64,000 nucleotides of DNA from an uncultured delta proteobacterium (GTDB lineage Bacteria; Desulfobacterota; Binatia; Binatales; Binataceae). Below, piece after piece: positions 1,979 through 53,940 of the stretch. The notes under the pieces were generated by a model. It did no database searches. It was given only the letters and a program-made list of their open reading frames with translations, and had not been told where the DNA came from. The position numbers were made by a program, and so were the translations under genes. Where the stretch lies: the NCBI GenBank assembly GCA_963699705.1, contig CAVOUW010000001.1:141572-205571 (forward strand), read 5' to 3'. Position 1 is the stretch's first letter. Each line of letters starts with the position of its first letter.

Positions 1979-3190
1979 TCAAGTGATCAGCTTCAGTTCC
2001 GAGAACAGATGGCCGAGTTTTTCCTTTTTGGTTTTCAAGTACCCGATATTTCCGGCGTGCGGCGTGACTTCGATCGGCACGCGCGAGACGTTCACCCCGT
2101 AACGGCGCAGGCTTTCGATCTTGTGCGGATTGTTGGTAAGCAACTGCACTTCGCCGACCCCGAGGTCGCGCAAAATCTGCGCGCCGATCCCGTAGTCGCG
2201 CAGGTCTTCCTCGAAGCCGAGATGCAAATTCGCTTCGACGGTGTCCATCCCATTGTCCTGCAGCGCGTAGGCGCGAATCTTGTTGCCGAGCCCGATTCCG
2301 CGGCCTTCCTGATGGAGATAGATCACAACGCCGCGATCCGCCGCCATGATTCGGTCGAGCGCTTCCTGCAACTGCTCGCCGCAATCGCATCGCGCGGACG
2401 CAAACACATCGCCAGTAAGACACTCCGAATGGAGCCGCACCAGCGCGGTACGCCCACCGCCGACCTGACCTTTGATCAACGCCAGATGCTCGCGCCCATC
2501 GACGACGTTGCGGAAGACGACCGCATTGAGCATGCCGCCGTCGATCGGAAACGGTTGCTCGGATACGCGCTGGACCAGAACTTCATTGGTCAGGCGATGC
2601 GAAACCAGTTCCTTGACGTAAACTATCGGCAGAGAATGCTGCGCGGCGAATTCGCGGAGTTCCTTGAGACGCGCGGCCTCACCGTCCTCGCGCAGAATCG
2701 TGCACAGCGCCGCGACCGGACCCATCCCGGCCGAGCGCACGAGATCCACCGCTCCCTCGGCGCGTCCTATTCGCACCATCACGCCGCCGCTCAGCGCCAT
2801 CAACGGCAGGATGTGACCAGGCATGACGATATCGTCGTGTCGCGATTCTTCGAAGGCGACCACCGAAATCACGCGCGCGCGATCGCCGGCCGAGATGCCG
2901 GTGGTGGCGCCTTCGCGCGCGTCGATCAGCACGCCGGCCTGCTCGTTGGAATCGCCGTTGTCGGTCGAAGGTTGCAGCGGAATGCCAAGTGCGCGAAAAC
3001 GCTTTTCGGGAATCGCGACCGAGATGACGCCGCGAGCCTCGCGCGCCATGAAATTGATGTCGTCGGGGGTGATTTTCTCGGCCGCCATCACGAGGTCGCC
3101 CTCGGCGTCGTCGCGCTCCTCCGCGATCATCACGACCATCTTTCCGTCGCGTAAGGTGGAGAAAATTTCGTCTAGGGAAGCTGATTTCAT
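1979..3190 (-). CDS. ribBA: bifunctional 3,4-dihydroxy-2-butanone-4-phosphate synthase / GTP cyclohydrolase II (RibBA)
   Basis: 403 aa. The DHBP synthase N-domain ([19 protein letters not shown]) is followed by the GTP cyclohydrolase II zinc motif ([30 protein letters not shown]). Confidence 0.92.
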
Positions 3191-3254: not shown

Positions 3255-3312
3255 GCGGGATGCCAGCAACCTAACCCCTAACCCCTTCCCGAGCGGAAGG
3301 GGAACAAGAAAG
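3255..3312. repeat. module-A palindromic repeat (CCTAACCCCTAACCCCTTCCC-gagc-GGAAGGGG), reverse orientation
   Basis: A stem CCCCTTCC/GGAAGGGG of 8-9 bp is followed by TTAGGGGTTAGG on the opposite strand. The same unit recurs at 9975, 13025, 26395, 31478, 41850, 44828 and 53860. Confidence 0.8.
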
Positions 3313-3339: not shown

Positions 3340-4462
3340 TTATCGGCGGACGCGGGCCTCTAACAGCGAGTCTTCGCCGACTGGGCGCGCGGACAAATCC
3401 GTGAGCGCGAGTGCGTCTCGCACGCTGCGGGATTTCATCCCTTCGATCGCTTGCAGGCCGGCGCCGAGGATTTTCGGGGCTACAAAGAACGCGATGCGAT
3501 CCACGATACCCGCGCTCAGAGCCGAGCCGGCGAGATTTGCGCCGCCTTCGATCAAGACGCGGCACCATCCGCGATGCCCAAACTCGAGCATCAGGCGATC
3601 CAGCTCGATGATGCCGCTGTGGGTCGCGACGGCGATGACCTCGACGCCGCGTCGCTCAAATCTCTCGCGGGCACGCGAGAGATTTGCCGGCGTGGTCACC
3701 AGGATGGTGACCGCGCGCGAGCGCTGCCGATACACCCGCGCGGTCGGCGCGGTGCGGAGTTGCGCGTCGATGACGACGCGCACCGGATCGCGGCCGCCGG
3801 CGACCCGCGCCGTCAGGCGCGGGTCGTCGGCGATCACGGTGCCGGCGCCGACCATAACGGCGTCGCATTCGCGACGCCATCGATGGACCAGTTCGCGCGA
3901 TTCGCGCGAACTGATCCATCGCGAATCGCCGCTGGCCGCGGCAATTCGCCCGTCTATCGACATCGCCAGCTTGAGGATGCCCAGTGGGCGTCCGAGTCGT
4001 AGCCGCGTGATGAATCCTTCGTTCAGACGGAGCGCTTCGCCTTCAAGCACTCCAACTCGTTACCGCGATTTTCGCGCCCTTGAGGATTGCGATTCCGCTT
4101 CCGCTGACGCGGGGGTCCGGATCAACGCATCCCACGACGACGCGCTTGACCTTCGCCGCGACCAGAGCGTTCGCGCACGGCGGCGTCTGTCCGAAATGCG
4201 CGCAAGGCTCGAACGACACGTACGCGGTCGCGCCGCGCGCGAACGCGCCCGCCTGCGCGAGCGCAACCGTCTCGCCGTGCGGACGCCCGCCGACGCCGGT
4301 GACACCGCGCCCAACGACTTTGTCGCCGCGCACAATCACGCATCCTACCGACGGATTTGGAGTGGTCAGCCCGAGTTGTTCCTGCGCCAGCGCGAGCGCC
4401 TCGCGCATGTAGCGCTGGTCCCGAATCGCGGCCGAATCAGGCGCCGTTGCCTTTCTTTTCAC
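3340..4462 (-). pseudogene. ribD: riboflavin biosynthesis RibD (deaminase plus reductase) interrupted by a +1 frameshift near 4043-4050, or an assembly indel
   Basis: Deaminase ORF 4043..4462 (HGETVALAQAG...VSFEPCAHFGQTPPC, a CDA zinc motif) ends ...AKIAVTSWSA at TGA. Reductase ORF 3340..4050 (GTG start; ...LKLAMSIDGRIAA...) is in the next frame and overlaps by 8 nt. Removing one nucleotide near 4048 restores a continuous linker IAVTVGVLEGEALRLNEGF. This matches the canonical fused RibD linker (E. coli-type ...IEVVSGVLEEEARALNRGF..., recalled from memory). Confidence 0.8.
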
Positions 4463-9969: not shown

Positions 9970-10020
9970 TTAAATCCGGTTCCCCTTCCCGCGCGGGAAG
10001 GGGTTAGGGGTTAGGTTCTT
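9970..10020. repeat. module-A palindromic repeat (GGTTCCCCTTCCC-gcgc-GGGAAGGGGTTAGGGGTTAGGTTC)
   Basis: A 9-bp perfect stem with a 4-nt loop sits between the convergent GH1 and nth genes. On the opposite strand it supplies the last codons (EPNP) and the TAA stop of the nth ORF. Confidence 0.85.
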
Positions 10021-13014: not shown

Positions 13015-13235
13015 CACGCGCGAAGAACCTAACCCCTAATCCCCTTCCGCGCGGGAAGGGGAACCAGAGAGTTTCATTTGGAGCGCGCCGCCTATCCCCC
13101 ACGCCCCCCTTTCATGAAAAGGGGAACAGAAAAGAGGCGGCGCGTTCTATCTTTCAACTTTTAACACTGGGTGCAGGGGTCACCCCTGCCGAAGGAAGCG
13201 TGAAACCCACCGCGGGTTTCACATTCAATTAGTGA
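13015..13235. repeat. composite mosaic repeat (modules A-B-C, reverse orientation)
   Basis: 13025-13065 is an A unit (CCTAACCCCTAATCCCCTTCC-gcgc-GGGAAGGGGAACC). 13085-13130 is a B-like unit (CCTATCCCCCACGCCCCCCTTTC-atga-AAAGGGGAAC). 13181-13232 is a C unit (GGTGCAGGGGTCACCCCTGCCGAAGGAAG-cg-TGAAACCCACCGCGGGTTTCA). The same three modules occur in the opposite order at 26268-26445 and 53655-53900. Confidence 0.85.
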
Positions 13236-14294
13236 TAACCCTTCCCTCACCCGCGCGACATCGCCTTGACGATTGCCGCTCGTTACCTCGCTCGTTGATG
13301 CTTTCCCGCCTACGTCGCGGGTCAGGACTTTGCCCGCGCGCAGCACCGACGCTGTTGCCGCGCGGATTTTGTCGCCGGCACTGCGATGTCCCAAATAGTC
13401 GAGCATCATCGCACTCGACAGGATCATCGCGATCGGATTCGCGACGCCTTTGCCCGCGATATCCGGCGCCGTCCCGTGCACCGCTTCGAAAATCGCGCCC
13501 TTGTCGCCGTAGTTCGCGCCCGGCACGAGTCCCAATCCTCCCACCAGCCCCGCGCACAAATCCGAAACGATATCGCCGTAGAGATTTTCCAGCAGCAGCA
13601 CGTCGAAAGATTCCGGATGCGTCACCAACCGCATGCAGGCCGCGTCAACGATTTGCTCCTGGTAGCGAATTTCCTTGTAGCCGGTTGATACCGCGCGCGC
13701 GCATTTCAAGAACAGGCCGTCCGATAGCTTCATTATGTTGGCTTTATGAATGGCGGTGACCGATTTGCGCCGATGCGTCCGCGCGTAGTCGAACGCGAAT
13801 TTCGCGATTCGCCGAGACGCGCGCGCCGTGATTACCTTGATACTCTCGACCACGCCGGGCGCGATCTCGTGCTCGATTCCCGAATACAGGTCCTCGGTAT
13901 TCTCGCGCACGACGATCAGATCGACGTTGCTGAACGGCGTATGCACTCCCGCAAAATTCATCGTCGGGCGCACGTTGGCGTAGAGGTCGAAGGTGCGCCG
14001 CAGATACACGTTGATCGAGCGCCATCCCTCGGCCACGCGCGTCTCGAGCGGCCCCTTGAGCGCGACTCCGGTACGTTTGAGCGATTTGATAAGCGCATCG
14101 GGCACTGGAGTTCCGAAGCGTCGAAACGCGTTCATCCCCGCCGCTTGGCGATCCCAAGCGATCGCGACGCCGGTCGCCTCGATCACCGCCAGCGCCGCGT
14201 TCACCACTTCCGGCCCGACCCCATCACCGGGAATCAACGTCACCGCGCGAGGGTGATTTTTCTGCGAGGCCGTAGTCTGGCTCTTCTTCTTCAA
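13161..14294 (-). CDS. isocitrate/isopropylmalate dehydrogenase family enzyme (NAD-IDH-like; could be tartrate/D-malate dehydrogenase)
   Basis: 377 aa. [12 protein letters not shown]...[20 protein letters not shown] is the ICDH/IPMDH fold. The last ~25 residues ([21 protein letters not shown]) are a read-through of the module-C repeat. The true C-terminus is probably earlier, or the repeat provides the stop. Confidence 0.8.
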
Positions 14295-24525: not shown

Positions 24526-24669
24526 GAATTGCCTCTCCCCTCGTGGGGAGAGATCGACGTGCTTCCGAGCGCGGCGGGTGAGGGACAACAATTCTTGAAT
24601 TTTCGCCTCGTTTCACTTCCCTCGAATTTGTGGCACAACAGAATCAATCACCACGTGGAGGTCGGCATC

Positions 24670-25381: not shown

Positions 25382-26263
25382 ATGAAGACGCTCCGCACTG
25401 AGACGCGCAACGGCGTCGGTATCATCACGCTCACGCGCGCCGACGAGTACAACACGATCACGCCCGACCTTCGCGATGAGCTTGGCGACGCGATCGACCT
25501 GGCCGACGCCGATCACGACGTCCACGTAATCCTGCTGTGCGCGGAAGGTCCAGCATTCTGCGCCGGCTACGCACTCGCAGGATCGACGCGCGCGCAAGCC
25601 GGTGAAGGTTCGCGCAAGCGCGCGTGGGACTCGGTCGCCGATTACGGGATGATCTCGCAATACGTCAACGTGTACATGAAACTCTGGTACGCGCGGAAAC
25701 CGACTATCGCCGCCGTACACGGATGGTGTATCGGCGGCGGCACCGACATGGTGTTGTGCGCCGATTTGATAATCGCAGGCGAGTCCGCGTCGTTCGGCTA
25801 TCCACCGTCGCGCGTATGGGGCACGCCGACCACCGCGATGTGGGTCTATCGGATGGGCCTCGAACGCGCCAAGCGCTACCTGCTGACCGGCGACGAGATC
25901 CCCGCGCCGGAAGCCGCGCGCATCGGACTAATCCTGGAAGCGGTGCCCGACGACGAACTCGACGCGCGCGCGACCGCACTTGCCGAGCGAATGGCGCGAG
26001 TTCCCACGAATCAACTCGAGATGCTCAAGCTCCTATGCAATCACACCGCCGAAAATATGGGACTGGCGACGTCGCGGCTGGTCGGCTCGCTCTTCGACGG
26101 AATCGCCCGGCATACGCAGGAAGGCCTCGATTTCGTCGCGCGCGCACAAGCCGCAGGCTTTCGGCAAGCCGTCCGCGAGCGCGATGACCCATTCGGCGAC
26201 TACGGCTCAGGCCCGCGCTCAAAAAATCGCGCGGTCAAGAAAAGCGGCAAGAAAAAAACTTAA
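25382..26263 (+). CDS. enoyl-CoA hydratase/isomerase family protein
   Basis: 293 aa. GVGIITLTRADEYNTI...AAVHGWCIGGGTDMVLCADLIIA is the crotonase fold. Confidence 0.85.
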   Translation: MKTLRTETRNGVGIITLTRADEYNTITPDLRDELGDAIDLADADHDVHVILLCAEGPAFCAGYALAGSTRAQAGEGSRKRAWDSVADYGMISQYVNVYMKLWYARKPTIAAVHGWCIGGGTDMVLCADLIIAGESASFGYPPSRVWGTPTTAMWVYRMGLERAKRYLLTGDEIPAPEAARIGLILEAVPDDELDARATALAERMARVPTNQLEMLKLLCNHTAENMGLATSRLVGSLFDGIARHTQEGLDFVARAQAAGFRQAVRERDDPFGDYGSGPRSKNRAVKKSGKKKT

Positions 26264-26264
26264 T

Positions 26265-26450
26265 CTAATGTGAAACCCGCGGTGGGTTTCACGCTTCCTT
26301 CGGCAGGGGTGACCCCTGCACCAAGTGAGAGAAATTTCTGTTCCCCCTTTCCCTCGGGAAAGGGGGTGAGGGGGATAGGACGGGCGGAATGGTTGCCTCA
26401 ATCCGGTTCCCCTTCCCTCGAGGGAAGGGGTTAGGGGTTAGGTTGCCGGG
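26265..26450. repeat. composite mosaic repeat (modules C-B-A, forward)
   Basis: C is TGAAACCCGCGGTGGGTTTCA-cg-CTTCCTTCGGCAGGGGTGACCCCTGCACC. B is GTTCCCCCTTTCC-ctc-GGGAAAGGGGGTGAGGGGGATAGGAC. A is CCGGTTCCCCTTCCC-tcga-GGGAAGGGGTTAGGGGTTAGGTT. Confidence 0.88.
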
Positions 26451-31469: not shown

Positions 31470-31562
31470 TATCTCAGGAACCTAACCCCTAACCCCTTCC
31501 CGCGCGGGAAGGGGGACCGGATTAATGGTTACCCCTTCTCACCCGGGAAGGGGAACCGGATT
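31470..31562. repeat. module-A repeat (reverse) plus a second related hairpin
   Basis: GAACCTAACCCCTAACCCCTTCCC-gcgc-GGGAAGGGGGACCGG is followed by TTACCCCTTC-tcacccg-GGAAGGGGAACCGG. Confidence 0.85.
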
Positions 31563-32565: not shown

Positions 32566-34281
32566 ATGGCGACCGCGCGCAAGAGTTTCGAGGCAATTCT
32601 GCTCGACCGATCATGGGTCTCGGCCCAGGATCTTGACAAGGCGCGGCAGCGTAAAAAGCCCGGACAGGAATTGGCCGACGTGCTGGTCGAGATGGGTGCG
32701 CTGGAGCCCCAACGCCTCGCACGCGCACTCGCGCAGGAATATCGGCTGCCATTCCAGGCCCATATCGACGAAAACGCGCTCGATCCCAAGCTCGTTTCCA
32801 AGGTTCCGATCAACTACGCGAAGAAGAACCGCCTGCTGCCGCTCTCGAGCATCGACGGCACGGTGACTATTGCGATGGCCGATCCGGCCAACTTCGAGCC
32901 GCTCGACGATTTGCGAATCCTGTTCGGCGCGCAGATAAATGTGCTGATCGCGCCGGCCGAAGTAATCGCCGAGGCGATCAACCGCGCGTACGACCAGGCG
33001 TCGGCCACTTCAGCCGAGGATCTGATGATCGATCTGCAAGAAGAGCGGCTCGACGTGGTCGCCAACGAACTCGCATCGGAGCCGCTGGACTTGCTCGAGT
33101 CCGACGATTCGGCGCCGATCATCAAGCTCGTCAACGGCGTGCTGTCGCAGGCGGTCAAGGATCGCGCGTCGGACATCCACGTCGAAGTTTTCGAAAAAGA
33201 AATGGTGGTGCGCTTCCGCGTGGACGGCATGATGTACGACGTGCTGTCGCCGCCCAAGCGGTTTCAGCCCGCGATCACCTCGCGCGTCAAAGTTATGGCG
33301 GGCCTCAATATCGCCGAGAAGCGGCTGCCGCAGGACGGCAGAATCCGCCTGCGCATCGCCGGCCGCGATATCGACTTGCGCGTCTCGTCGATCCCGACCG
33401 CGTTCGGCGAGCGTATCGTGCTGCGACTGCTCGACCGCGCGCAGGCCGTGGAAGCCATCAACCTCGACCATCTCGGTTTTTCGGGAGACAATCTTCAGCG
33501 GCTCGATCGCTTAATCCGGCAGAGTCACGGGATCATCCTGGCGACCGGGCCGACCGGCTCGGGCAAATCGACGACGCTGTACGCGTGCCTGACCAGAATC
33601 AACTCGCCTGAAAAAAATATCATCACGATCGAAGATCCGATCGAGTACCAGTTGCGCGGCGTCGGCCAGATGCAAGTGAATCCGAAGATCGAGCTGACCT
33701 TCGCCAGCGGCCTTCGCTCGATACTGCGCCAGGATCCCGACGTGATCATGGTCGGCGAAATCCGCGACAGCGAAACCGCCGAAATCGCAATCCAGGCCGC
33801 GCTCACCGGCCATCTGGTATTCTCGACGCTCCACACTAACGACTCGTTCGGCGCGGTGACGCGCCTGGTCGATATGGGAATCGAGCCGTTCCTGGTTTCG
33901 TCGTCGATTCTCGCCGTGCTCGCACAGCGCCTGGTCCGCAAGCTCTGCGTCGATTGCCGCGAGCCTTACAAGGCCAGCGAAACCGAGCTCGCGCGAATCG
34001 GACTCAAGGGCGTCGATGCGGAGAACAAGATCTGCCGTCCCAAGGGATGCCGCAATTGCCGCAACACCGGCTATCGCGGCCGAATGGCGATCCAGGAACT
34101 GATGATCATGGACGACGAAATTCGCTCGCTCGTGATGCAGAACGCCGACGCCGCGACGCTGCGCCGCAAATGCACCAGCGTTGGGATGACGCTGCTGCGC
34201 CAGGACGGTGCGGCGCGCGTGTTGCGCGGCGAGACTTCGATCGAAGAGTTGCTGCGGGTCACGCAGGAAGACATCGACTAG
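32566..34281 (+). CDS. gspE: type II secretion system ATPase GspE
   Basis: 571 aa. It has the N1/N2 domains, Walker A GPTGSGKST, the Asp box and a tetra-Cys zinc motif (CVDC...CRNCRNTGYRGR). Confidence 0.9.
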   Translation: MATARKSFEAILLDRSWVSAQDLDKARQRKKPGQELADVLVEMGALEPQRLARALAQEYRLPFQAHIDENALDPKLVSKVPINYAKKNRLLPLSSIDGTVTIAMADPANFEPLDDLRILFGAQINVLIAPAEVIAEAINRAYDQASATSAEDLMIDLQEERLDVVANELASEPLDLLESDDSAPIIKLVNGVLSQAVKDRASDIHVEVFEKEMVVRFRVDGMMYDVLSPPKRFQPAITSRVKVMAGLNIAEKRLPQDGRIRLRIAGRDIDLRVSSIPTAFGERIVLRLLDRAQAVEAINLDHLGFSGDNLQRLDRLIRQSHGIILATGPTGSGKSTTLYACLTRINSPEKNIITIEDPIEYQLRGVGQMQVNPKIELTFASGLRSILRQDPDVIMVGEIRDSETAEIAIQAALTGHLVFSTLHTNDSFGAVTRLVDMGIEPFLVSSSILAVLAQRLVRKLCVDCREPYKASETELARIGLKGVDAENKICRPKGCRNCRNTGYRGRMAIQELMIMDDEIRSLVMQNADAATLRRKCTSVGMTLLRQDGAARVLRGETSIEELLRVTQEDID

Positions 34282-34305
34282 ATCCGCGTTTAAGTTTTTT
34301 CACCG

Positions 34306-35535
34306 ATGCCAGTATTTGCTTATCGAGGTCTTGGCGCCGACGGTCGCTCCGTCAACGGCGTAGTTGACGCCGACAGCGCGCGCACCGCACGCGGCAAGTT
34401 GCGCGCGTCGGGGATTTTTCCGACCGACCTCAACGAGGAGTCCAACGCCGCGCAACGCTCGGCCGCCAAGCGCGAGTGGCTGCCCTCGCTCTGGCGGCGC
34501 AAGATGCCGGCCTCGGATCTCGCGCTGCTGACGCGGCAGTTGAGCGCGTTGCTCGGCGCGGGCGTGCAGCTGGTCGATGCGCTCAGCGCGCTCGCCGATC
34601 AATCGTCGCGCGCCGCGACCAAGCGGATGCTCTCTCAAGTGCGCGAGCGCGTGCGCGAGGGCTCGTCGCTGGCCGACGCGCTGACCAATCATCGCGACGT
34701 CTTTTCAGACCTCTACATCGGGATGGTGCGTGCCGGCGAGCAGGCTGCCGCGCTCGAGGCCGTTCTTGATCGGCTGGCCGAGTACAGCGAGCGCCAGAAT
34801 GAATTCGTAACCAAGGTTCGCGGCGCGCTGACCTATCCGATCATCATGATGTGCGTCGGCACCGGAATCATGGCGTTCCTGGTGGCGTACGTGGTGCCGC
34901 AGGTCGCGACGATTTTCCAGCAGCAACATGCCGCCTTGCCCTTGGCGACGCGAATCCTGATCACCTTTTCCGGTCTCGTCACCGGCTACTGGATTCCGCT
35001 TGGCCTGCTGCTGGTCGGTATCGTCGCAGGATTCACCGCCGCGATGGCGACGCCGCGCGGCCGCCGCATCTACGACACCGCGATCCTGAAGGTGTATTAC
35101 ATCGGCCCGACCATGATTCGAATTATCTGCGCCCGCTTCGCACGGACGCTCGCAACTCTGCTCGCCAGCGGCGTCCAGTTGCTTCCCTCGCTCGACGCGG
35201 TCAAAGGCGTGGTGACCAACGGTCTGCTCAAGGACGCCGTCGAGCAGAGCCGCGAAAGTATCCGCGAGGGCCACGGCATGGCGCAGACGCTCGCGCGCAG
35301 CGGTCTTTTTCCGCCGCTGCTGATCGAGATGATCCGCGTTGGCGAGCGTTCCGGCGAACTTGAGCGGATGCTCGAGCGGGTCGCCGACAACTACGAGCGC
35401 GAAGTCTCGCACTCGCTCAGCCAGATGACCACCGTGCTCGAACCGGTGATGACGCTGGCGATGGCCGCTGTTATCGTGTTCATGATGCTTGCGGTGCTGA
35501 TGCCAATCTTCCAGCTCAACCAGTTGATGCAATGA
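34306..35535 (+). CDS. gspF: type II secretion system inner-membrane platform protein GspF
   Basis: 409 aa. Duplicated GspF domains are present (LLGAGVQLVDAL..., ...LLASGVQLLPSL...) with 3 TM segments. Confidence 0.9.
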   Translation: MPVFAYRGLGADGRSVNGVVDADSARTARGKLRASGIFPTDLNEESNAAQRSAAKREWLPSLWRRKMPASDLALLTRQLSALLGAGVQLVDALSALADQSSRAATKRMLSQVRERVREGSSLADALTNHRDVFSDLYIGMVRAGEQAAALEAVLDRLAEYSERQNEFVTKVRGALTYPIIMMCVGTGIMAFLVAYVVPQVATIFQQQHAALPLATRILITFSGLVTGYWIPLGLLLVGIVAGFTAAMATPRGRRIYDTAILKVYYIGPTMIRIICARFARTLATLLASGVQLLPSLDAVKGVVTNGLLKDAVEQSRESIREGHGMAQTLARSGLFPPLLIEMIRVGERSGELERMLERVADNYEREVSHSLSQMTTVLEPVMTLAMAAVIVFMMLAVLMPIFQLNQLMQ

Positions 35536-35573
35536 TGAATGAAAAAGTGAAAAATGCGCCGGAGGTAACTGCG

Positions 35574-36003
35574 ATGAAATCACGCCGATACAATCAGGAT
35601 GGTTTCACCCTGATTGAAATCATGGTGGTCATCCTCATCCTCGGCCTGCTCGCGACCATCGTCGTCCAGAGCCTTCGCGGCGCCGCCGACAAGGCCAAGA
35701 CGCACCAAGGCGCAGGCCGACATGGCCGAGCTCAAGACCGCACTCGATCGTTACTACCTCGACAACGGCTTCTACCCGACCACCGACCAGGGCTTGAGTT
35801 CGCTGGTTTCGCCGCCGAGCAGCGGACGCACGCCCGCCAACTACGAGGCTGGCGGTTACATCGAGCGCCTGCCGACGGATCCATGGGGCAATCAGTACTT
35901 CTACCAGAGCGATGGGAACTCCTACGCGCTGAAGTCGTTCGGCAAAGGCGGCACCGAAAGCCAGGACACTTCGGGCGTTATAGACGCCAGCCAATCGAAT
36001 TGA
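35574..36003 (+). pseudogene. gspG: major pseudopilin GspG, split by a +1 frameshift near 35700 (or an assembly indel)
   Basis: Frame 1 gives the prepilin N-terminus MKSRRYNQDGFTLIEIMVVILILGLLATIVVQSLRGAADKAKTHQ... and then becomes Arg-rich nonsense. Frame 2 (track ORF 35614..36003) gives ...KAQADMAELKTALDRYYLDNGFYPTTDQGLSSLV...GGYIERLPTDPWGNQYFYQS.... This matches the GspG body. Deleting one C in CACCAAGG rejoins them as ...ADKAKTHKAQADMAELK.... Confidence 0.8.
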
Positions 36004-36015
36004 CGGCGTTATGAA

Positions 36016-36612
36016 GTGGAGCCCGACTCAGCTTGCCCGTGCTCCATCGCGATCGCGCGCGAGCGGCGAGTCAATTTCGTGACATCCGTATCGCCCGGCT
36101 TCACGCTGCTCGAACTCGCGGTCGTGATTTTTATCATGGGCCTGATGCTGACCTTGGCGCTGCCGTATCTCGGTGGATTCCGCCAGGCGGCGCTGAAAAG
36201 CCAGGCGCGCCGGCTCGCGGGACGCGCGACTTACATGTACGACGAGGCTACCGGCCACAAACTCGTGCTGCGGCTCATCTTCGATATGGACAACAACGGC
36301 TACGCGGTCGCGCAACTCGATCCCTATGCGGTCAAGCCGGTGTTCGCGCCTGACAACAGCATGTCGGGACACCCGGTGATGTTGCCGGCGGCGATTCGGA
36401 TTCGCGACGTCACTGTCGAGGGCATCGGCACCGTCAATCGCGGCACTACCGCGACCACTTTTTATCCCGAGGGTTACGTCGATGCGACCGTGGTCCATCT
36501 CGAGGACGCATCCGGCGACGTGATGACGCTCGAAATTTCTCCGCTGACCGGCCAGGTGGCAATTATCAACGGCGACGTGATGCCCACGGGAATGCAGGTG
36601 ACCCCAAGGTGA
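36016..36612 (+). CDS. gspH: minor pseudopilin GspH
   Basis: It has the prepilin-type N-terminus GFTLLELAVVIFIMGLML. The real start is probably an internal GTG just before it. Confidence 0.75.
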   Translation: MEPDSACPCSIAIARERRVNFVTSVSPGFTLLELAVVIFIMGLMLTLALPYLGGFRQAALKSQARRLAGRATYMYDEATGHKLVLRLIFDMDNNGYAVAQLDPYAVKPVFAPDNSMSGHPVMLPAAIRIRDVTVEGIGTVNRGTTATTFYPEGYVDATVVHLEDASGDVMTLEISPLTGQVAIINGDVMPTGMQVTPR

Positions 36613-37019
36613 ATCTGCTTCGCCGCGCGCCAGGATTTACCCTGCTAGAAGTGATGGTCGCGATTGCGATCCTCGGGATCGCGCTGCTCGGCCTGCTCGG
36701 GCTGCATCATCAGAGCCTGCAATCGGTGATCCGCGCGCAGCAATCGACCCGCGCCTCGATGCTCGCGCAGGCCGTCATGACCGAAGCTGAGCTCGAGCGA
36801 TATCCGGATCTCGGCCGCAGTAGCGGCGATTTCGAATCTTCCTTCCCCCGCGAGTTCCCGGATTTCCGGTGGGAGCGCGAGGTGGCCGCATCTGGGATGT
36901 TTCCCGACGTGCGCAAGGTCAAGGTCGTGATTCGCTACGGTCCGAAGCTTTTGCAGAGCTTCTCGCTGGTCGAGTTCATGCACTCGCCGGTGCCGCCCGA
37001 TCCGAATGAGCTCCAATGA
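36609..37019 (+). CDS. gspI: minor pseudopilin GspI
   Basis: MNLLRRAPGFTLLEVMVAIAILGIALLGL. It is 136 aa and shares a 4-nt overlap with gspH. Confidence 0.8.
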   Translation: MNLLRRAPGFTLLEVMVAIAILGIALLGLLGLHHQSLQSVIRAQQSTRASMLAQAVMTEAELERYPDLGRSSGDFESSFPREFPDFRWEREVAASGMFPDVRKVKVVIRYGPKLLQSFSLVEFMHSPVPPDPNELQ

Positions 37020-37690
37020 CCAACCAACGAAAACGCATCGCCACGCATCGCGCGCCACGCGGCTTCACCCTCATCGAGATGATGCTCGCGATTGGCGTGA
37101 TGGCGCTGATCCTCGCGATGCTGGCCAGCTCGTTCAGCACCATCGCGCATAGCAAGGTGCACGCCGAAGGACGGCTGATGGTCGATCGCGAAGGACGCGC
37201 CCTGCTCTGGCAACTTACCAAGGAACTGCGCAACGCGGTGCAGACTCCGTATACCGCCAGCAACGTCGCGCTGTTCGGCGCCGGACACATGGCCGGCGGC
37301 GCGGCGGTCGATACACTCACGCTGTCCACCTTCAGCGGCGGCCATCGACGCGCACTCACCGGGATGACGCCCGAGACGATAGTTACTTACAATCTGACCG
37401 CGAATCCCGACCAACAGGGTTGGTTCGTGCTGAATCGCTCGCAGCAAAGTGGATTGCTGACCAGCAACGCCACGCCGCAAACAACGGTGCTCGCGGACAA
37501 TATACTCTCGCTTCATTTTCGCTATTTCGACGGCCAGAAGTGGGGCGAGAGTTGGGAGTCGCCCAGTCAGCCGCGCGGACGGCAGTTGCCGGTCGCAGTG
37601 GCGGTCCAGATTCAGATGGCAGCGCCCGGCGGCCGCGTGATGGACTTCGCGACCCAGGTCACCCTGCCAATGGCAATACAGCAATGGTAA
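37016..37690 (+). CDS. gspJ: minor pseudopilin GspJ
   Basis: RGFTLIEMMLAIGVMALILAML. It is 224 aa and shares a 4-nt overlap with gspI. Confidence 0.8.
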   Translation: MTNQRKRIATHRAPRGFTLIEMMLAIGVMALILAMLASSFSTIAHSKVHAEGRLMVDREGRALLWQLTKELRNAVQTPYTASNVALFGAGHMAGGAAVDTLTLSTFSGGHRRALTGMTPETIVTYNLTANPDQQGWFVLNRSQQSGLLTSNATPQTTVLADNILSLHFRYFDGQKWGESWESPSQPRGRQLPVAVAVQIQMAAPGGRVMDFATQVTLPMAIQQW

Positions 37691-38631
37691 AGCAGCTGCG
37701 AAAGAACGAGCGCGGCGTCGCGCTGCTGGCGGTTCTGCTCGGAATCGCGCTGATGACGTTGATCGTCGTGGACTTCGCCCTGACCTCGGGACTCGGATTC
37801 GTGTCGGCGGCGAATCAGGCCAACGAACTGCGCGCCAGCTACCTCTCGCGCTCGGCGGTCAATATCGGTCTCGCCCTGTTGGCGGCGGACGCGCGCGCGG
37901 ACACCAAGACGCCGACTCCGATCGACGCCTTGACCGACGTGTGGGCGGTGCCGTTCCCGCCGATGCCGCTGGAGGGCGGCACTGTCTCGTTGTCGATTGT
38001 GGATGAAGGGCGCAAGATCAATCTCAACGCGATGGTCCAGAACGGTCAGCCCAATCTGCCTGCGATCCAGAAGGTGCAGCGGCTGTTCACCATACTCGAC
38101 GTGAAACCCGAGCTGGTTCAAGGTATCATCGACTGGATCACGCCGAACAATGGCACCGGGCTTGGCGGCGGAATCGGGGATTACTACGCGGGATTAAAGC
38201 CGCCATATCAGCCGCGCTACGGCGCGATGCCGACGATTGGTGATTTGTCGATGGTGCAGGGATTCAACGAGGCAATTTTCAACCGGGTCAGCCCGTTTCT
38301 GACCGTGATGCCCGAGACCGCGGTCAACGCCAACACCGCCGCGCCGCAAGTGCTGGCCGCGCTGGAGCCGGAGTTGACCGAGGATCAGAAAATTGTGCTG
38401 GCGATAATCGACGCGCGCACGATTCGCCCGTTTACCCAGCCGACCGACATCGGAAACCTCCCGGACCTCGGTGAAATCGGACAGCGCCTTCAGAAGGACG
38501 TGATGATGCGCAGCCAATATTTTACGATTACCGGAACCGGCGTCTATGCGGGCGCGCGCAAAATCATTACCGCAACTTTCCATCGCGAGACCACCGGTAT
38601 CGGCACCCTCGCAGCTTGGCACGAAGACTAG
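37684..38631 (+). CDS. gspK: minor pseudopilin GspK
   Basis: ATG at 37684 (MVKQLRKNERGVALLAVLLGIALMTLIVVDF). It is ~315 aa with GspK-like helix-hairpin-helix-like regions. The track ORF begins upstream, inside gspJ. Confidence 0.8.
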   Translation: MVKQLRKNERGVALLAVLLGIALMTLIVVDFALTSGLGFVSAANQANELRASYLSRSAVNIGLALLAADARADTKTPTPIDALTDVWAVPFPPMPLEGGTVSLSIVDEGRKINLNAMVQNGQPNLPAIQKVQRLFTILDVKPELVQGIIDWITPNNGTGLGGGIGDYYAGLKPPYQPRYGAMPTIGDLSMVQGFNEAIFNRVSPFLTVMPETAVNANTAAPQVLAALEPELTEDQKIVLAIIDARTIRPFTQPTDIGNLPDLGEIGQRLQKDVMMRSQYFTITGTGVYAGARKIITATFHRETTGIGTLAAWHED

Positions 38632-38662
38632 GATCGAGGACTAGGGTCAATCAGGTCGCCGA

Positions 38663-40157
38663 ATGGCTCAACGAATACTTGCACTCGAGCTGGGAGCCGA
38701 TCGCGTACGCGCGGCGATGGCCGAGCGCTCGTGGAATTCCTTCACCCTCGCCGGCACCTTCGACAAGGTTCGCGCCGATGACGAGGCCGACCTGAGCGGC
38801 GCGCTCGCGCGCCTCGTGGTCGAAGCCGGGCAGCCCGATATCGTCATCTCGGCCCTGCCCGCCGACCGCGCCGTCAAACGCTTGCTCGAACTGCCGTTCA
38901 AAGACGCGCGCCGCCTGCATCAGGTGGTCCCGTTCGCTCTGGAAGAGCATCTGCCGTTCCCGGTGGATAACGGCACTGTCGCATTCACGCGCGTCGGCCG
39001 CGAGGCCGATCACACGCTGGTGATGGCCGCGATGGTGCGCAAGACCGATCTTCAGCAGCATCTTGATCTGCTGCAAAAGGCGGGACTCGATCCGAAGACC
39101 GTCACGCTCGCGCCACTGGCGCTGGCCGCGATGTTCACGCGCAACAAGAATGGCAACGGCGCCAAGCCGATGGCGCACCTCGTCGTCGAGGGCGACGAGT
39201 CGTCCACGTCGGTCGTGCTGGTCGATCTCGGAGGCACCCCGCGCGTGCTGCGTTCGATGCAAGGCGGCTTGATGATGTCCGACGGATCGGTGGTCTCCAA
39301 TGAAGCCGCCGCGCCGATTCTCAATTCGGTGCGTCAAACCCTGCTCGCCAACGGCGAAGATGCGGACCAGACCGAGGTGATCGTCGCGGGCGCGGCGGCG
39401 GCGTATCCGAAAGTGCGCGGACATGCTGTCGGACTCGCTCGCGATGTCGGTGCGCGACGGCGGCGCGTTCGACTACACCGGCATCTTCGAGGGCAGCGTT
39501 CCCAACACCGGCAAGTATTCATCGTGCCTCGCGATGCTGCTCGGCGAGATGCCGACCAAGCCGATCGATCTGATCAATTTCCGCCAGGGCGAGTTCATGT
39601 TTCGCGGACGCGTCCGCGGCGATCTCAGCCCGTTCTACACCTCGGGCATTCTCGCGGCGGCCGTGCTGGGCGTGGTCATACTTCATTTCGCGCTCGGCGT
39701 GTCCGCCAATCTTCATCGCCTCCACAAAGTCGATGCGGAAATTGCCGCAGTCGCCGGACCGGTCCTCGGCGAAACCGATCCCGCCAACGCCAAGGCGCAG
39801 TTGCAGACCGGAATCGCCAGGATGAACAAGCGGCTCAACCTCATCGGCGGCAACATGACTCATTCGCCGCTCGATACCCTGGTCGCGGTGTCGCGCGCAT
39901 TGCCGCCGCGCTTTCCAGTCCAGATGGCCGACGTAACGATCGACTCGCAAGGACTTCGCGTAACCGGACAGGCGGATTCGTTCTCGACCGTCGATCAAGC
40001 CAAGCGTGCGCTCGACCAAAGCGGCTTCTTCGGCGCGATCGAAGTCGCGCACGCGAAGGCCGGCTCCGGCTCCGATGCGAGCAAAGTTGATTTTCGGATG
40101 GACGCAAATTTCAAGGACGCGGTGCCGTCAGCTGATCGCGGCGACCTCGAAGAATAA
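38663..40157 (+). pseudogene. gspL: GspL, split by a +1 frameshift in the GCGGCGGCGGCG run near 39395-39420 (or an assembly indel)
   Basis: Frame A (38663..~39420) is the cytoplasmic actin-like GspL domain (MAQRILALELGADRVRAA...) and then ~220 codons of Arg-rich nonsense. Frame B (39423..40157) carries the TM helix (ILAAAVLGVVILHFALGV) and the periplasmic GspL C-domain. The two halves together make a normal-length GspL. Confidence 0.78.
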
Positions 40158-40801
40158 TGCTGAGAGAATGGATCGACAATTTGAGCGCGCGACTGAGGGA
40201 TTTGATCCGCCCGTGGCTCAAGCAGGCTTCGACGCGCGTCGATCCACTGATCGCACAGGCGCGCGGCCGCTACCAGAAGCTCGAACCGCGCGAACGCATC
40301 CTGGTGCAGATTGCCGGCGTACTGGTCGCGATTTTTCTCCTCTACAATCTTGTCTACACGCCGATCGTTGACCTGAGTTCCGGGCTCGAAGATAAAATCG
40401 CGCAGCGTCAACAGGATCTCGCCGACGTTCGCCGCCTCGCCGGCACCTACGCGCAGCTCAAAGCCAATCTCGCCAATGCCGAGAAGCACACGGTGCCATT
40501 GGGCAAGGATTTCTCGCTGTTCTCCGTCGTCGAAGCCTCGATGACCAAGAGTGTCGGCCGCGACAAGATTGGCTCGATCACGCCCGGCTCCGATCGTAAA
40601 CTCACCGACGGCTTCACCGAATACAGCGTGCAGTTGAAGCTCGCCAACGTGAATCTCGCGCAGTTGGTCGACGCGCTCTACGGCATCAACACCTTGCCGA
40701 TGCCGATTGGGGTCTCGAATATTCGCATCCAGCGCCGCACTCCGGACACGCATTCCTACGACGTTGACCTGACTTGTGTCGCGCTCACCAAGAACACTTG
40801 A
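40157..40801 (+). CDS. gspM: type II secretion system protein GspM
   Basis: 214 aa. It has an N-terminal TM (ILVQIAGVLVAIFLLYNLVY) followed by a periplasmic domain. It sits in the gspL-gspM-gspN position. Confidence 0.7.
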   Translation: MLREWIDNLSARLRDLIRPWLKQASTRVDPLIAQARGRYQKLEPRERILVQIAGVLVAIFLLYNLVYTPIVDLSSGLEDKIAQRQQDLADVRRLAGTYAQLKANLANAEKHTVPLGKDFSLFSVVEASMTKSVGRDKIGSITPGSDRKLTDGFTEYSVQLKLANVNLAQLVDALYGINTLPMPIGVSNIRIQRRTPDTHSYDVDLTCVALTKNT

Positions 40802-41660
40802 CGTGCGCGCGACTCCGCCGGCGCCGCAATACAATCGACCCCGCTTCCTTCGAACCGCCTACACAATCGTCGGTCTCACCCTGTTCGCCGCGTACCTGGT
40901 TTCCACCTTCCCCTACTCCCAAACTCTGACCAAGGTCCTCGCACCGATGGGCCTCGAGGTCTCCAGTGCCAGCCAGCGAGCTCACTTCCCCTTCGGCGCG
41001 CAGTTGTCGGACGTCCGCTTGATCTCGACCCGTAACGCGGCGATCAACCTGCTGGTCGAAAGCCCGGCGGTCACGATCGCGCCGTCGTATCTCTCGATGC
41101 TCACGATGCATCCTGGCGTTCGCGTGAAAGCCGCGCTCTACGACGGCGTGGTGAACGTCACGATCCGCCCCACCAAACTCGGCACCGCCATCAGCTACGA
41201 CCTCGACTCGGTGGAACTCGCGCGTCAACAGTTATTGACCATAGTGGGCGCCAGCGCCGCCGGCGCGCTCTCCGGAACCGGCAACTTGCTGCTGTCCCCC
41301 GATAACCTCGCGGAAAGCGGCGACGGCCTCCTGAGCGCCGCCGGCCTGACGTTCACCTCGGCGCTGACAAGCGCACCAATCCGCCTCGGCGACGGCCATT
41401 CAAAATTCAAACTGGATCAAGGCACATTGACAATCGAGCAACTAACAACCACCGGTGGCGACTTAACCCTAACAGCCGAAGGCACAATCCAGCTCGCCCC
41501 CGACCCTGCGCAAAGCGACCTGGCAATCCAATTCACGCTCTCAATCGCCCCCGCCGCCGCCTCTCATCTCGCACTACTACTCGCAATCCTGCCCCACCCC
41601 CCCGGCCCCCAGCCCTACCACCTGACCGGCACCCTGGCGCCCCCCGAATCAGCTAACAGC
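40776..41660 (+). CDS. gspN: type II secretion system protein GspN (the 3' end of the ORF reads into the repeat cluster)
   Basis: It has an N-terminal TM (AYTIVGLTLFAAYLV) and a periplasmic GspN-like domain. The track ORF continues to 41885, but its last ~75 codons are repeat read-through (PIPVPVGKGARGIG...PLFPLPCGKG...). The true stop is uncertain. Confidence 0.6.
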
Positions 41661-41900
41661 GAGAAACTCCAAATCACCCTTTTTCCAATTCCGGTCCCCG
41701 TCGGAAAGGGGGCGAGAGGGATAGGACAGCGCGTAGCGATGACTGTTCCCGCTGTTGCCCTTTCCTTGCGCGTTGGGATGACTTTTCCCTTGTTCCCCCT
41801 TCCTTGTGGAAAGGGGGTGAGGGGGATAGGACGACGCGATTCTGACCAAACTCCGGTTCCCCTTCCCACTATGGGAAGGGGTTAGGGGTTAGTTCCTCGA
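41640..41900. repeat. repeat cluster: a degenerate B, then B, then A modules
   Basis: 41690-41730 is CCGGTCCCCGTC-GGAAAGGGGGCGAGAGGGATAGGAC. 41795-41840 is GTTCCCCCTTCCTTGT-GGAAAGGGGGTGAGGGGGATAGGAC. 41850-41898 is CCGGTTCCCCTTCCC-actat-GGGAAGGGGTTAGGGGTTAG. Confidence 0.85.
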
Positions 41901-43974: not shown

Positions 43975-44047
43975 GCGACGGCTGAGGAGCGGCGAAGAAT
44001 CTTCAATCGCGCGCGAAAAATAATCGCGCGCTGTATTCGGACCCTCG

Positions 44048-44078
44048 CCTTTGATCCTCTCCCTTCGAGGGGAGAGGT
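44048..44078. repeat. module-D palindrome CCTCTCCC-ttcga-GGGGAGAGG
   Basis: The same unit occurs at 24534-24556 (CCTCTCCCCTCGTGGGGAGAG) and 53913-53938 (CCTCTCCCGAAGGGAGAGG). Confidence 0.75.
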
Positions 44079-44825: not shown

Positions 44826-44920
44826 GCGAGGAACCTAACCCCTAACCCCTTCCCGAGCGGGAAGGGGGACCGGAAATTTTGGAGTAACCTCTTCCCATAG
44901 TGGGAAGGGGACCAGAAAAA
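44826..44920. repeat. module-A repeat (reverse) plus a second related hairpin
   Basis: GAACCTAACCCCTAACCCCTTCCC-gagc-GGGAAGGGGGACCGG is followed by CTCTTCCCA-tagt-GGGAAGGGGACC. This is the same arrangement as at 31470-31562. Confidence 0.85.
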
Positions 44921-53649: not shown

Positions 53650-53940
53650 GCCACTTTATTTAATTTGAAACCCACGGTGGGTTTCAAACTTCCTTCGGCA
53701 GGGGTGACCCCTGCACCCAGTGAAAAGAAATCGCAAAATGGCGAAGACGCCCTTTTGCTCTGAGGTTCTTCTCCTGTGTCATTCTTTTCTGTTCCCCCTT
53801 TCCTGCTGGAAAGGGGGTGAGGGGATAGGACGGGGGGAATAGTTGTCTCAAATCCGGTTCCCCTTCCCGCTCGGGAAGGGGTTAGGGGTTAGGTTCTTTC
53901 GCGCGCGCCGGAGGCGCGTCCTCTCCCGAAGGGAGAGGTG
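53650..53940. repeat. composite mosaic repeat (modules C-B-A plus D, forward)
   Basis: C is TGAAACCCACGGTGGGTTTCA-aa-CTTCCTTCGGCAGGGGTGACCCCTGCACC. B is GTTCCCCCTTTCC-tgct-GGAAAGGGGGTGAGGGGATAGGAC. A is CCGGTTCCCCTTCCC-gctc-GGGAAGGGGTTAGGGGTTAGGTTC. D is CCTCTCCCGAAGGGAGAGG. Confidence 0.88.

Follow-up and report, generated by a model that had tools for sequence, protein, structure and literature searches.

Modular intergenic repeats of a Binatia genome: triplex-motif repeats of the BoxC/PIT class, their association with DUF559 nuclease genes, and a separate gene-end module

Earlier work on the BoxC/PIT repeats of Escherichia coli includes that of Bachellier in the 1990s and of Hoyne and Maher in 2000. 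In these repeats, called BoxC at first, later PIT and then the triplex motif TMECO, a hairpin made up of a pyrimidine arm, a loop and a purine arm is followed, after a short linker, by a third block in mirror image to the purine arm (PMC4666352). TMECO, present in 23 copies per E. coli genome, folds as an intrastrand triplex in vitro according to circular dichroism and nuclear magnetic resonance (Holder et al. 2015, PMC4666352). Triplex motifs (TM) are known from over 260 genomes and are especially numerous in cyanobacteria; they lie between genes without strand bias and mark unstable loci, and BoxC is distinct from the repetitive extragenic palindromic (REP) elements (PMC4666352). The E. coli PIT elements had neither promoter nor terminator activity in earlier work cited by Holder et al., who report never finding transposases or integrases near triplex motifs (PMC4666352). 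Here we analysed a stretch of 64 kb with 60.8% G+C (the window) from the genome of an uncultured delta proteobacterium of the Binataceae (contig CAVOUW010000001.1), where hairpin-forming modules, termed A to D, occupy about ten intergenic sites, with none expected by chance. The explanation that we favour on balance is that two unrelated repeat families tend to stack at gene 3' ends: repeats of the TM class (modules A, B and one tailed copy of D), which are linked to genes of DUF559 endonucleases, and a separate module, C.

The 21-nt core of module A, GGGAAGGGGTTAGGGGTTAGG, matched the window eight times, six of them exactly, at 3270(-), 9995(+), 13028(-), 26422(+), 31481(-), 41873(+), 44834(-) and 53873(+). 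The core of module B was found with up to three mismatches at 26357, 41808 and 41703, all on the plus strand, and neither core occurred in 100 dinucleotide-preserving shuffles. The total of eight A and five B copies per 64 kb compares with a chance expectation of zero, and all of these copies are solo and non-autonomous. In the hairpins, the 5' arm contains only pyrimidines and the 3' arm only purines (CCCCTTCCC/GGGAAGGGG in A, CCCCCTTTCC/GGAAAGGGGG in B and CCTCTCCC/GGGAGAGG in D). Under a mirror criterion in which a third block after a short linker places G opposite G, and A or T opposite A, the purine arm and the third block agreed at 8 of 9 triads in A, 10 of 10 in B and 9 of 9 in E. coli TMECO, with a 3-nt linker in each, and the non-G positions shifted together across the three. 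Over 167 elements, the mirror score was 0.785, compared with 0.63 for shuffled tails. Modules A and B represent two variants of a common architecture and, because they obey the same mirror rule as TMECO, they are new members of the known BoxC/PIT/TM class, to which the tailed copy of D also belongs. Module D comprises three short hairpins with a common stem at 24532, 44056 and 53920, of which only the one at 44056 carries a tail. Module E is an A-like hairpin with a short tail and without the long tail of A; its two window copies each lie directly 5' of an A copy. The mirrored third block is missing in E and in the D copies at 24532 and 53920, which are hairpins only.

Modules A and B share with BoxC/PIT/TMECO the order of pyrimidine arm, loop, purine arm, 3-nt linker and mirrored G-rich third strand, a length of about 40-46 nt, an intergenic, multi-copy occurrence without strand bias, near-identical copies and a raised turnover among relatives. 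They differ from TMECO in their stems (CCCCTTCCC and CCCCCTTTCC, against CCCTCTCCC), in their host, which belongs to an uncultured phylum (Binatota), and in standing in fixed-order composites behind module C. By analogy with TMECO, an A-type strand could adopt a hairpin fold or that of an intrastrand purine-motif triplex. A switch between G-quadruplex (G4) and hairpin was proposed for E. coli BoxC (bioRxiv 032615), and strings of the type (TTAGGGG)n were found only in the in-vitro G4 literature; the mirror rule fits the A tail better than a G-quadruplex reading. An earlier note on this window, made from the sequence by itself, had compared the modules with the bacterial interspersed mosaic elements (BIMEs) and REP elements of E. 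coli, but with entirely different sequence. The mosaic organisation holds, whereas the supposed novelty of sequence does not, A and B being of the same class as BoxC/PIT/TMECO.

No associated gene was found for the published BoxC/PIT/TM repeats; in contrast, the repeats described here and at E. coli ycjD flank DUF559 genes. Two loci from the spread scan described below, L043 and L092, contain inverted A pairs about 400 nt apart that enclose the same small open reading frame (ORF); the part common to both loci is the unit alone, and the flanks differ. The enclosed ORF belongs to DUF559 (PF04480), with E-values of 1e-30 to 1e-41 and 105-140 bits against a cut-off of 20.6 (L043, L092, L064 and L112). 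Its D...ExDG...H core is invariant (D61, E72, D74 and H78), and its structural relatives include 3HRL (8e-14) and the Vsr-like homing endonuclease I-Bth0305I (PDB 3R3P, 4e-4). The match to PF04480 and this core are what the repeat-flanked gene has in common with Vsr, I-Bth0305I and 3HRL. Unlike Vsr and I-Bth0305I, the predicted nuclease gene is free-standing, codes for about 110-130 aa, does not lie in an intron or intein and has no cytosine methyltransferase gene next to it. All four DUF559 genes in the examined Binatia loci were flanked by inverted repeats of the A/B/D type: L064, from the same metagenome-assembled genome (MAG) as the locus L044, has the order B(+), A(+), gene, A(-), B(-), and the flanks in L112 are D-type. 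The C-terminal codons of the DUF559 gene (..PNP*) are read from the complementary strand of an A tail.

The association was also present in a set of 80 metagenomic DUF559 loci picked by protein similarity alone, with 40-64% identity to the query and 42-70% G+C. Significant inverted repeats spanned the gene in 36 of the 64 loci with adequate flanks. Using a detector for elements with a stem of at least 7 bp, a pyrimidine 5' arm and a G-rich 16-nt tail, we counted 4.18 hairpin-plus-tail elements per kb within 250 nt of the DUF559 gene, compared with 0.11 per kb at more than 500 nt on the same contigs, a 38-fold difference. At least one adjacent element accompanied 53 of 63 DUF559 genes. Elements on both sides were found for about 34 of the 63, counted over the protein-picked loci together with the four Binatia genome loci, versus 17 of 758 control genes (odds ratio about 50, A-enriched Binatia loci included). 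The left and right repeats of a locus form cognate pairs, with a similarity of 0.87 within loci against 0.70 between loci, and the geometry is regular: in the median, a TM(-) element lies at about -139, a TM(+) element ends at about -42, and the DUF559 gene is followed by TM(-) from about +4 and TM(+) from about +67.

The association extends across phyla of cultured organisms, where flanking repeats were present at all ten loci examined, E. coli ycjD among them (by one tally nine organisms, with E. coli represented twice): Picosynechococcus PCC 7002, Pseudanabaena, Synechocystis B12, Sinorhizobium meliloti, Neisseria gonorrhoeae, Deinococcus, Sphingomonas, Photobacterium, Azospirillum and E. 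coli H240. In E. coli K-12, ycjD itself has a degenerate repeat at its end, with a TMECO copy, out of 23 in the genome, 170 nt downstream (chance estimate about 0.4%). Neither ycjD nor DUF559 is mentioned by Holder et al. (PMC4666352), and none of the titles listed from the open-access literature on DUF559 dealt with flanking repeats. One published study reports an enrichment of DUF559 genes among predicted 'programmed inversion' targets, and this enrichment is an indirect sighting of the DUF559 inverted repeats.

Two further observations concern the DUF559 units. Part of the 3' coding end of the gene is directly repeated just outside it, over 23 nt at E. coli K-12 ycjD (L214:5330-5480) and over about 80 nt, including hairpins, at L112:5995-6490, which hints at repeated recombination at that end. 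In Sphingomonas parapaucimobilis (L216, NZ_CP155753.1 112192-113366), the DUF559 unit sits between sufB and sufC, which are adjacent in most relatives, and in Azospirillum lipoferum 4B (H35) a GIY-YIG nuclease gene occupies the same spot. The presence of DUF559 in one species and GIY-YIG in another, with the spot empty in most relatives, suggests that the sufB-sufC spacer is a hot spot for small selfish nuclease genes.

We tentatively propose that BoxC/PIT/TM repeats, among them A and B, serve in cis as ends or targets of a widespread and hitherto unrecognised class of minimal selfish elements that encode only DUF559, and that solo repeats are their non-autonomous derivatives, in organisms as diverse as E. 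coli, cyanobacteria, Neisseria, rhizobia, Deinococcus and Binatota. In related genomes, A and B form the inverted ends of minimal units coding only for a DUF559 endonuclease (YcjD-family, Vsr-like PD-(D/E)xK). This enzyme may recognise and nick the folded repeat or a YTAGG-like linker, and recombination or gene conversion initiated at the nick would then copy, homogenise and delete repeats; A and B would work at the DNA level. The scheme would be analogous to that of REP elements and their REP-associated tyrosine transposases (RAYTs), differing in the enzyme and the DNA structure. As in REP/REPIN-RAYT systems and BIMEs, the repeats are short, palindromic and intergenic, number in the hundreds and lack target-site duplications, and as in REP-RAYT an enzyme gene of single or low copy number is bracketed by inverted repeats, with clusters of alternating orientation around it. 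Unlike in REP-RAYT, the enzyme is a Vsr-like PD-(D/E)xK protein (DUF559) instead of an HUH/Y1 transposase, a mirror-repeat tail stands in place of the GTAG head, and the role of the enzyme is putative. A REP-RAYT-like partnership built on a PD-(D/E)xK nuclease and hairpin or triplex DNA belongs to this selfish-element proposal, which also includes C as a possible motif of the 3' untranslated region (UTR), and we put it forward with equal reserve.

An alternative that we consider unlikely, though it survives better than any other, is that TM repeats persist on their own, as structure-prone DNA, by slippage or as selected recombination or pausing sites, and that DUF559 is a homing-type parasite which inserts into their clusters. 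An independent parasite would suit the typical location of the DUF559 gene inside an alternating TM-/TM+ array, the existence of gene-less tail-to-tail A doublets (for example, L072), the lack of correlation between protein and repeat type, the use of the sufB-sufC spot by a GIY-YIG gene in Azospirillum and the numerical imbalance in E. coli, with 23 TMECO copies and one ycjD. It does not suit the cognate nature of the left and right repeats of a unit or the near-identical solo copies across species and phyla, which require a homogenising or copying activity; moreover, the right repeat encodes the DUF559 C-terminus in many lineages, which suggests a long-standing unit and not a random insertion.

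The spread of the repeats was assessed by a scan for the exact A core with one genome per species, which returned at least 117 stretches. Nearly all of the matches listed were MAGs of Candidatus Binatus/Binataceae or 'uncultured delta proteobacterium' (Binatota), and they represent dozens of Binatia species. Over 150 copies with at most one core mismatch, the conserved span of A amounts to about 46 nt (CCGGTTCCCCTTCCC, a 4-7-nt loop and GGGAAGGGGTTAGGGGTTAGGTT) without a conserved flank. Seven genomes of heterocystous cyanobacteria (35-41% G+C) and that of Gemmata sp. IIL30 (65% G+C) contain an identical A hairpin with its tail. There, A is preceded by a differing hairpin of opposite orientation (ACCTCTCYC-N6-GRGAGAGG, then CTTTAAAA), and the two make up a doublet of about 110 nt whose tails point outward (L009, L012, L017, L039, L045, L046, L052, L057, L073, L086, L103 and L056). 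Four other matches, in Acidobacteriota and other MAGs, were plain tandem GGGGTTA arrays and not A (L048:3048-3194, L090:6028-6216, L005 and L080). The number of heptamers in the A tail differs between orthologous copies, with three in L035, two in L105 and four in L081. A B(-)-B(+) spacer of about 250 nt is 70% identical between two species (L064:5840-6050 and L070:7240-7450). The phage-like contig L124 (IMG/VR; portal and terminase genes, 59% G+C) carries A in intergenic spacers at 1456, 7089 and 9477, and A is also present in L123; such a contig is a possible vehicle for horizontal spread of A. Scans of viral contigs, with few matches and one real phage-like contig, did not identify a vector for the repeats.

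Comparison with orthologous stretches revealed gain and loss of modules. Parts of the window have orthologous counterparts in two loci, L044 and L096, with 84-88% identity, which assigns the window to a Binatia genome; L044 is its closest relative. At 53790-53896, B and A are missing in L096, where C is kept. The A copy beside the indel at 31531-31562 is 100% conserved in L044, compared with an identity of about 75-85% for the rest of the spacer. Five more filled/empty orthologous pairs were found, as were site swaps, in which one species has C, or a D-type element, where another has A. With dozens of Binatia species and gain and loss at orthologous sites, the expanded modular repeat family suspected in the earlier note is borne out.

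Among 139 A copies, six lay inside called genes, and A was found in 39 convergent and 16 divergent spacers, compared with 151 and 157 in the background. The copy at 3268-3308 indicates that A is tolerated inside a probable transcription unit, the riboflavin operon. We regard it as improbable that all modules, A and B included, serve the upstream mRNA at the RNA level, as intrinsic terminators or as stabilisers of its 3' end. The hairpins are highly stable (z about -3.9), divergent spacers, which hold promoters, are depleted of A, and all eight A copies in the window are co-oriented with the upstream gene; the last of these is not general, since approximate counts in the larger locus sample gave 29 copies with only a co-oriented and 41 with only an anti-oriented neighbour. 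Furthermore, A and B have no U-tract, the consensus terminator and promoter scan called no module and found terminator-like sites as often as in shuffles, one A copy lies within the rib operon, and PIT elements of E. coli lack terminator and promoter activity in the work cited in PMC4666352. The terminator role that the earlier note had considered is not upheld for A and B; for module C, an RNA-level action would form part of the explanation that we favour.

Even less probable is that A and B are strict REP elements mobilised by RAYT, with their clusters being BIMEs. Being short, palindromic, intergenic, clustered and biased to gene 3' ends, the modules look the part, but their information profile displays a 5' CCGG and a 3' TTAGGGGTTAGGTT in place of a GTAG/CGTC head, they follow the triplex mirror rule as does BoxC, which in E. 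coli differs from REP, and they flank DUF559 genes instead of RAYT genes. A phmmer search with E. coli RayT found no match in six-frame ORFs of the window and 118 loci (about 1 Mb), a search which covered less than 1% of the genomes concerned and so leaves this reading some room.

Module C is a family separate from A, B and D, and was never found in DUF559 loci; the single family A to D assumed in the earlier note does not hold, and C alone behaves like a 3'-UTR element. Its core occurs in the window at 13170(-), 26294(+) and 53689(+) and in none of 100 dinucleotide-preserving shuffles. An alignment of 59 copies revealed an AT-rich leader ACTTTATTnAATG, often with a G-rich stretch on its 5' side, then hairpins 1 and 2 separated by a linker, CACCCAGTG and a third hairpin of either of two kinds; in the copy at 26258-26336, hairpin 1 spans 26270-26292 and hairpin 2 spans 26302-26319. 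Compensatory double changes are present in both main hairpins. The loop of hairpin 1 pairs with the linker before hairpin 2, as G-C in 26 sequences and C-G in 12, and 24 cells were altered on both sides, compared with 6.9 in shuffles. The conserved secondary structure that the earlier note had anticipated is backed by these changes. A long-range pairing of the G-rich leader with CTTCCTTC was dropped, as no covariation was seen.

In contrast to A, module C has a clear orientation: 41 of 49 copies lay just past the end of a co-oriented ORF and only two were solely anti-oriented (binomial p about 3e-6), and convergent gene pairs often have one C per gene. C is a structured element of about 80-130 nt, restricted to Binatia, that closely follows stop codons on the sense strand and has two hairpins, a loop-linker pairing and alternative third hairpins. 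Judging by its sequence and position, C most likely acts in the 3' end of the mRNA, in 3'-end formation or protection, and it may be a new structured 3'-UTR RNA motif. Rfam gave no window hit at gathering thresholds, and with permissive E-values the best score for C and the composite was 19.6 bits against a threshold of 71; no match to C was found in the open-access literature. An integron attC site, a group II intron remnant and a pistol or other ribozyme were rejected as identities of C, given the lack of an R'/R'' core and of an Rfam signal, and the housekeeping flanks. A further recurrent module, TTCTTTTCCTGTGTCATTCT(A/T)GAGCGAAGCGAAGAATCC, follows C; its window copy at 53765-53790 is partial, and others lie at L077:6990-7060 and in L096, L065, L085 and L030.

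C, B and A form three composites in the window, as the earlier note had described, at 26258-26445, at 53653-53896 and, inverted, at 13025-13236, which align over their full length, with a variable insert between C and B; the similarity extends no further than 'ACTTAAT...' at one end and '...TTAGGTT' at the other. Wherever C and A lie within 300 nt of each other, the order is C, (B), A on one strand, in 18 of 18 cases in the loci and 3 of 3 in the window. The composites are reminiscent of the pneumococcal BOX elements (boxA-boxB(n)-boxC) in their modularity, fixed order, variable module number, predicted stable folds and lack of a known transposase, but they have no sequence relation to BOX, and the window modules also occur alone and come from two unrelated families. 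The fixed order and orientation and the length of 180-250 bp would agree with a miniature inverted-repeat transposable element (MITE), that is, an internally deleted insertion sequence of the DDE or IS200/IS605 type moving as one piece, but this can hardly be the case, as the composite and the filled/empty alignments have no terminal inverted repeats or target-site duplication, the modules are far commoner alone than together, B and A are missing at an orthologous site where C is kept, and no transposase was seen in the examined loci; the MITE-like nature suggested in the earlier note is dismissed with it.

Several points weigh against the explanation by two stacking families, one of them linked to DUF559. 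The window contains no DUF559 gene, for which reason the link was invisible in the earlier note. The link between DUF559 and the repeats is a correlation, and we know of no enzymology for any DUF559 protein. The similarity of DUF559 proteins and that of their flanking repeats are uncorrelated (r=0.04), which argues against a tight co-evolution of protein and repeat. Neither a target-site duplication nor a clean empty site was seen in nine orthologous comparisons, in which the spacers were highly diverged. The exact A core served to select the loci, and their genes were called crudely by GC3, which renders the orientation counts approximate; this selection, the crude calls and the restriction of the literature search to open-access papers make the negative findings less strong. 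C has no U-tract in the consensus terminator scan, though it is gene-oriented, and the fixed order of C, (B) and A in all 18 cases is left unexplained by the model. Finally, a stable triplex in vivo could not be demonstrated by Holder et al. (PMC4666352).

The individual copies in the window are listed in Table 1. All copies of A, B, C and D named in the earlier note are present, with coordinates within about 10 nt; its inventory had missed the two E hairpins, the extension of C beyond the given bounds in both the 5' and 3' directions, and the common architecture of A and B. The modules were also said to supply stop codons and read-through peptides to adjacent ORFs. This holds for nth, whose stop codon (10004-10006) falls within an A tail; in the DLH ORF, codons 1 to 25 are a read-through of A, because the Pfam domain begins at residue 48. 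The cluster of B copies and A at 41689-41893 follows the last ORF of a type II secretion cluster (32566-41650), in which T2SSE, T2SSF, an N-methyl pseudopilin and T2SSK were identified by Pfam.

Table 1. Repeat modules in the 64-kb window (positions are those of the window)
Module	Position	Strand	Description	Basis
A	3268..3308	-	solo, within rib operon between ribD (3340-4050) and ribBA (1979-3190)	exact core; flanking genes by Pfam
A	9975..10018	+	solo, between GH1 gene and nth; tail gives nth stop codon	core match
A	13025..13066	-	part of inverted C-B-A composite	core match and composite alignment
B	13089..13129	-	degenerate, in inverted composite	sequence
C	13156..13236	-	hairpin 1, linker, hairpin 2; directly 3' of Iso_dh gene; G-rich leader to about 13258	core and alignment
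D	24532..24553	.	hairpin CCTCTCCCC/GGGGAGAG, without third-strand tail	sequence
C	26258..26336	+	begins 5 nt before enoyl-CoA hydratase stop (26261-26263); without third hairpin	core and alignment
B	26339..26381	+	pyrimidine arm, loop, GGAAAGGGGG, linker TGA, then GGGGGATAGG; 10/10 mirror triads	core and mirror rule
A	26402..26445	+	CCCCTTCCC, loop, GGGAAGGGG, linker TTA, then GGGGTTAGG; 8/9 mirror triads	core and mirror rule
A	31478..31521	-	100% conserved in orthologous L044 spacer	core and ortholog alignment
E	31531..31562	-	A-like hairpin and short TAACC tail; 37-nt indel, missing in ortholog L044	ortholog alignment
B	41689..41727	+	degenerate	core match
B	41790..41832	+		core match
A	41850..41893	+	one core mismatch; final unit of B'-B-A cluster after type II secretion genes	core; Pfam neighbours
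D	44042..44077	-	hairpin, weak third-strand-like tail on minus strand	sequence
A	44831..44874	-	between convergent hydrolase and acyl-CoA dehydrogenase genes	core; Pfam neighbours
E	44885..44911	-	hairpin GGGAAGAGG, then TTACTCC	sequence
C	53653..53775	+	alternative third hairpin GCAAAATGGCG..CGCCCTTTTGC; begins 15 nt past sigma-54 activator stop; kept in ortholog L096	core and alignment
B	53790..53831	+	one indel; missing in ortholog L096	ortholog alignment
A	53853..53896	+	missing in ortholog L096	core; ortholog alignment
D	53920..53938	.	hairpin CCTCTCCC GAA GGGAGAGG, without tail	sequence

The feature itself is a known kind of repeat combined with an undescribed gene-end module, and its chief value is the lead to DUF559. 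For annotation, the elements account for recurrent spurious ORF extensions such as PFPRGKGLGVR, and C gives an uncultured soil phylum a candidate for a structured 3'-UTR motif. The BoxC/PIT/TM repeats of hundreds of bacterial genomes have been on record since the 1990s, and DUF559 is a concrete candidate for the enzyme behind their origin and spread. Conversely, the link gives a possible role to a large family of domains of unknown function with a solved structure. As E. coli ycjD shares the arrangement, the idea is directly testable in a model organism.

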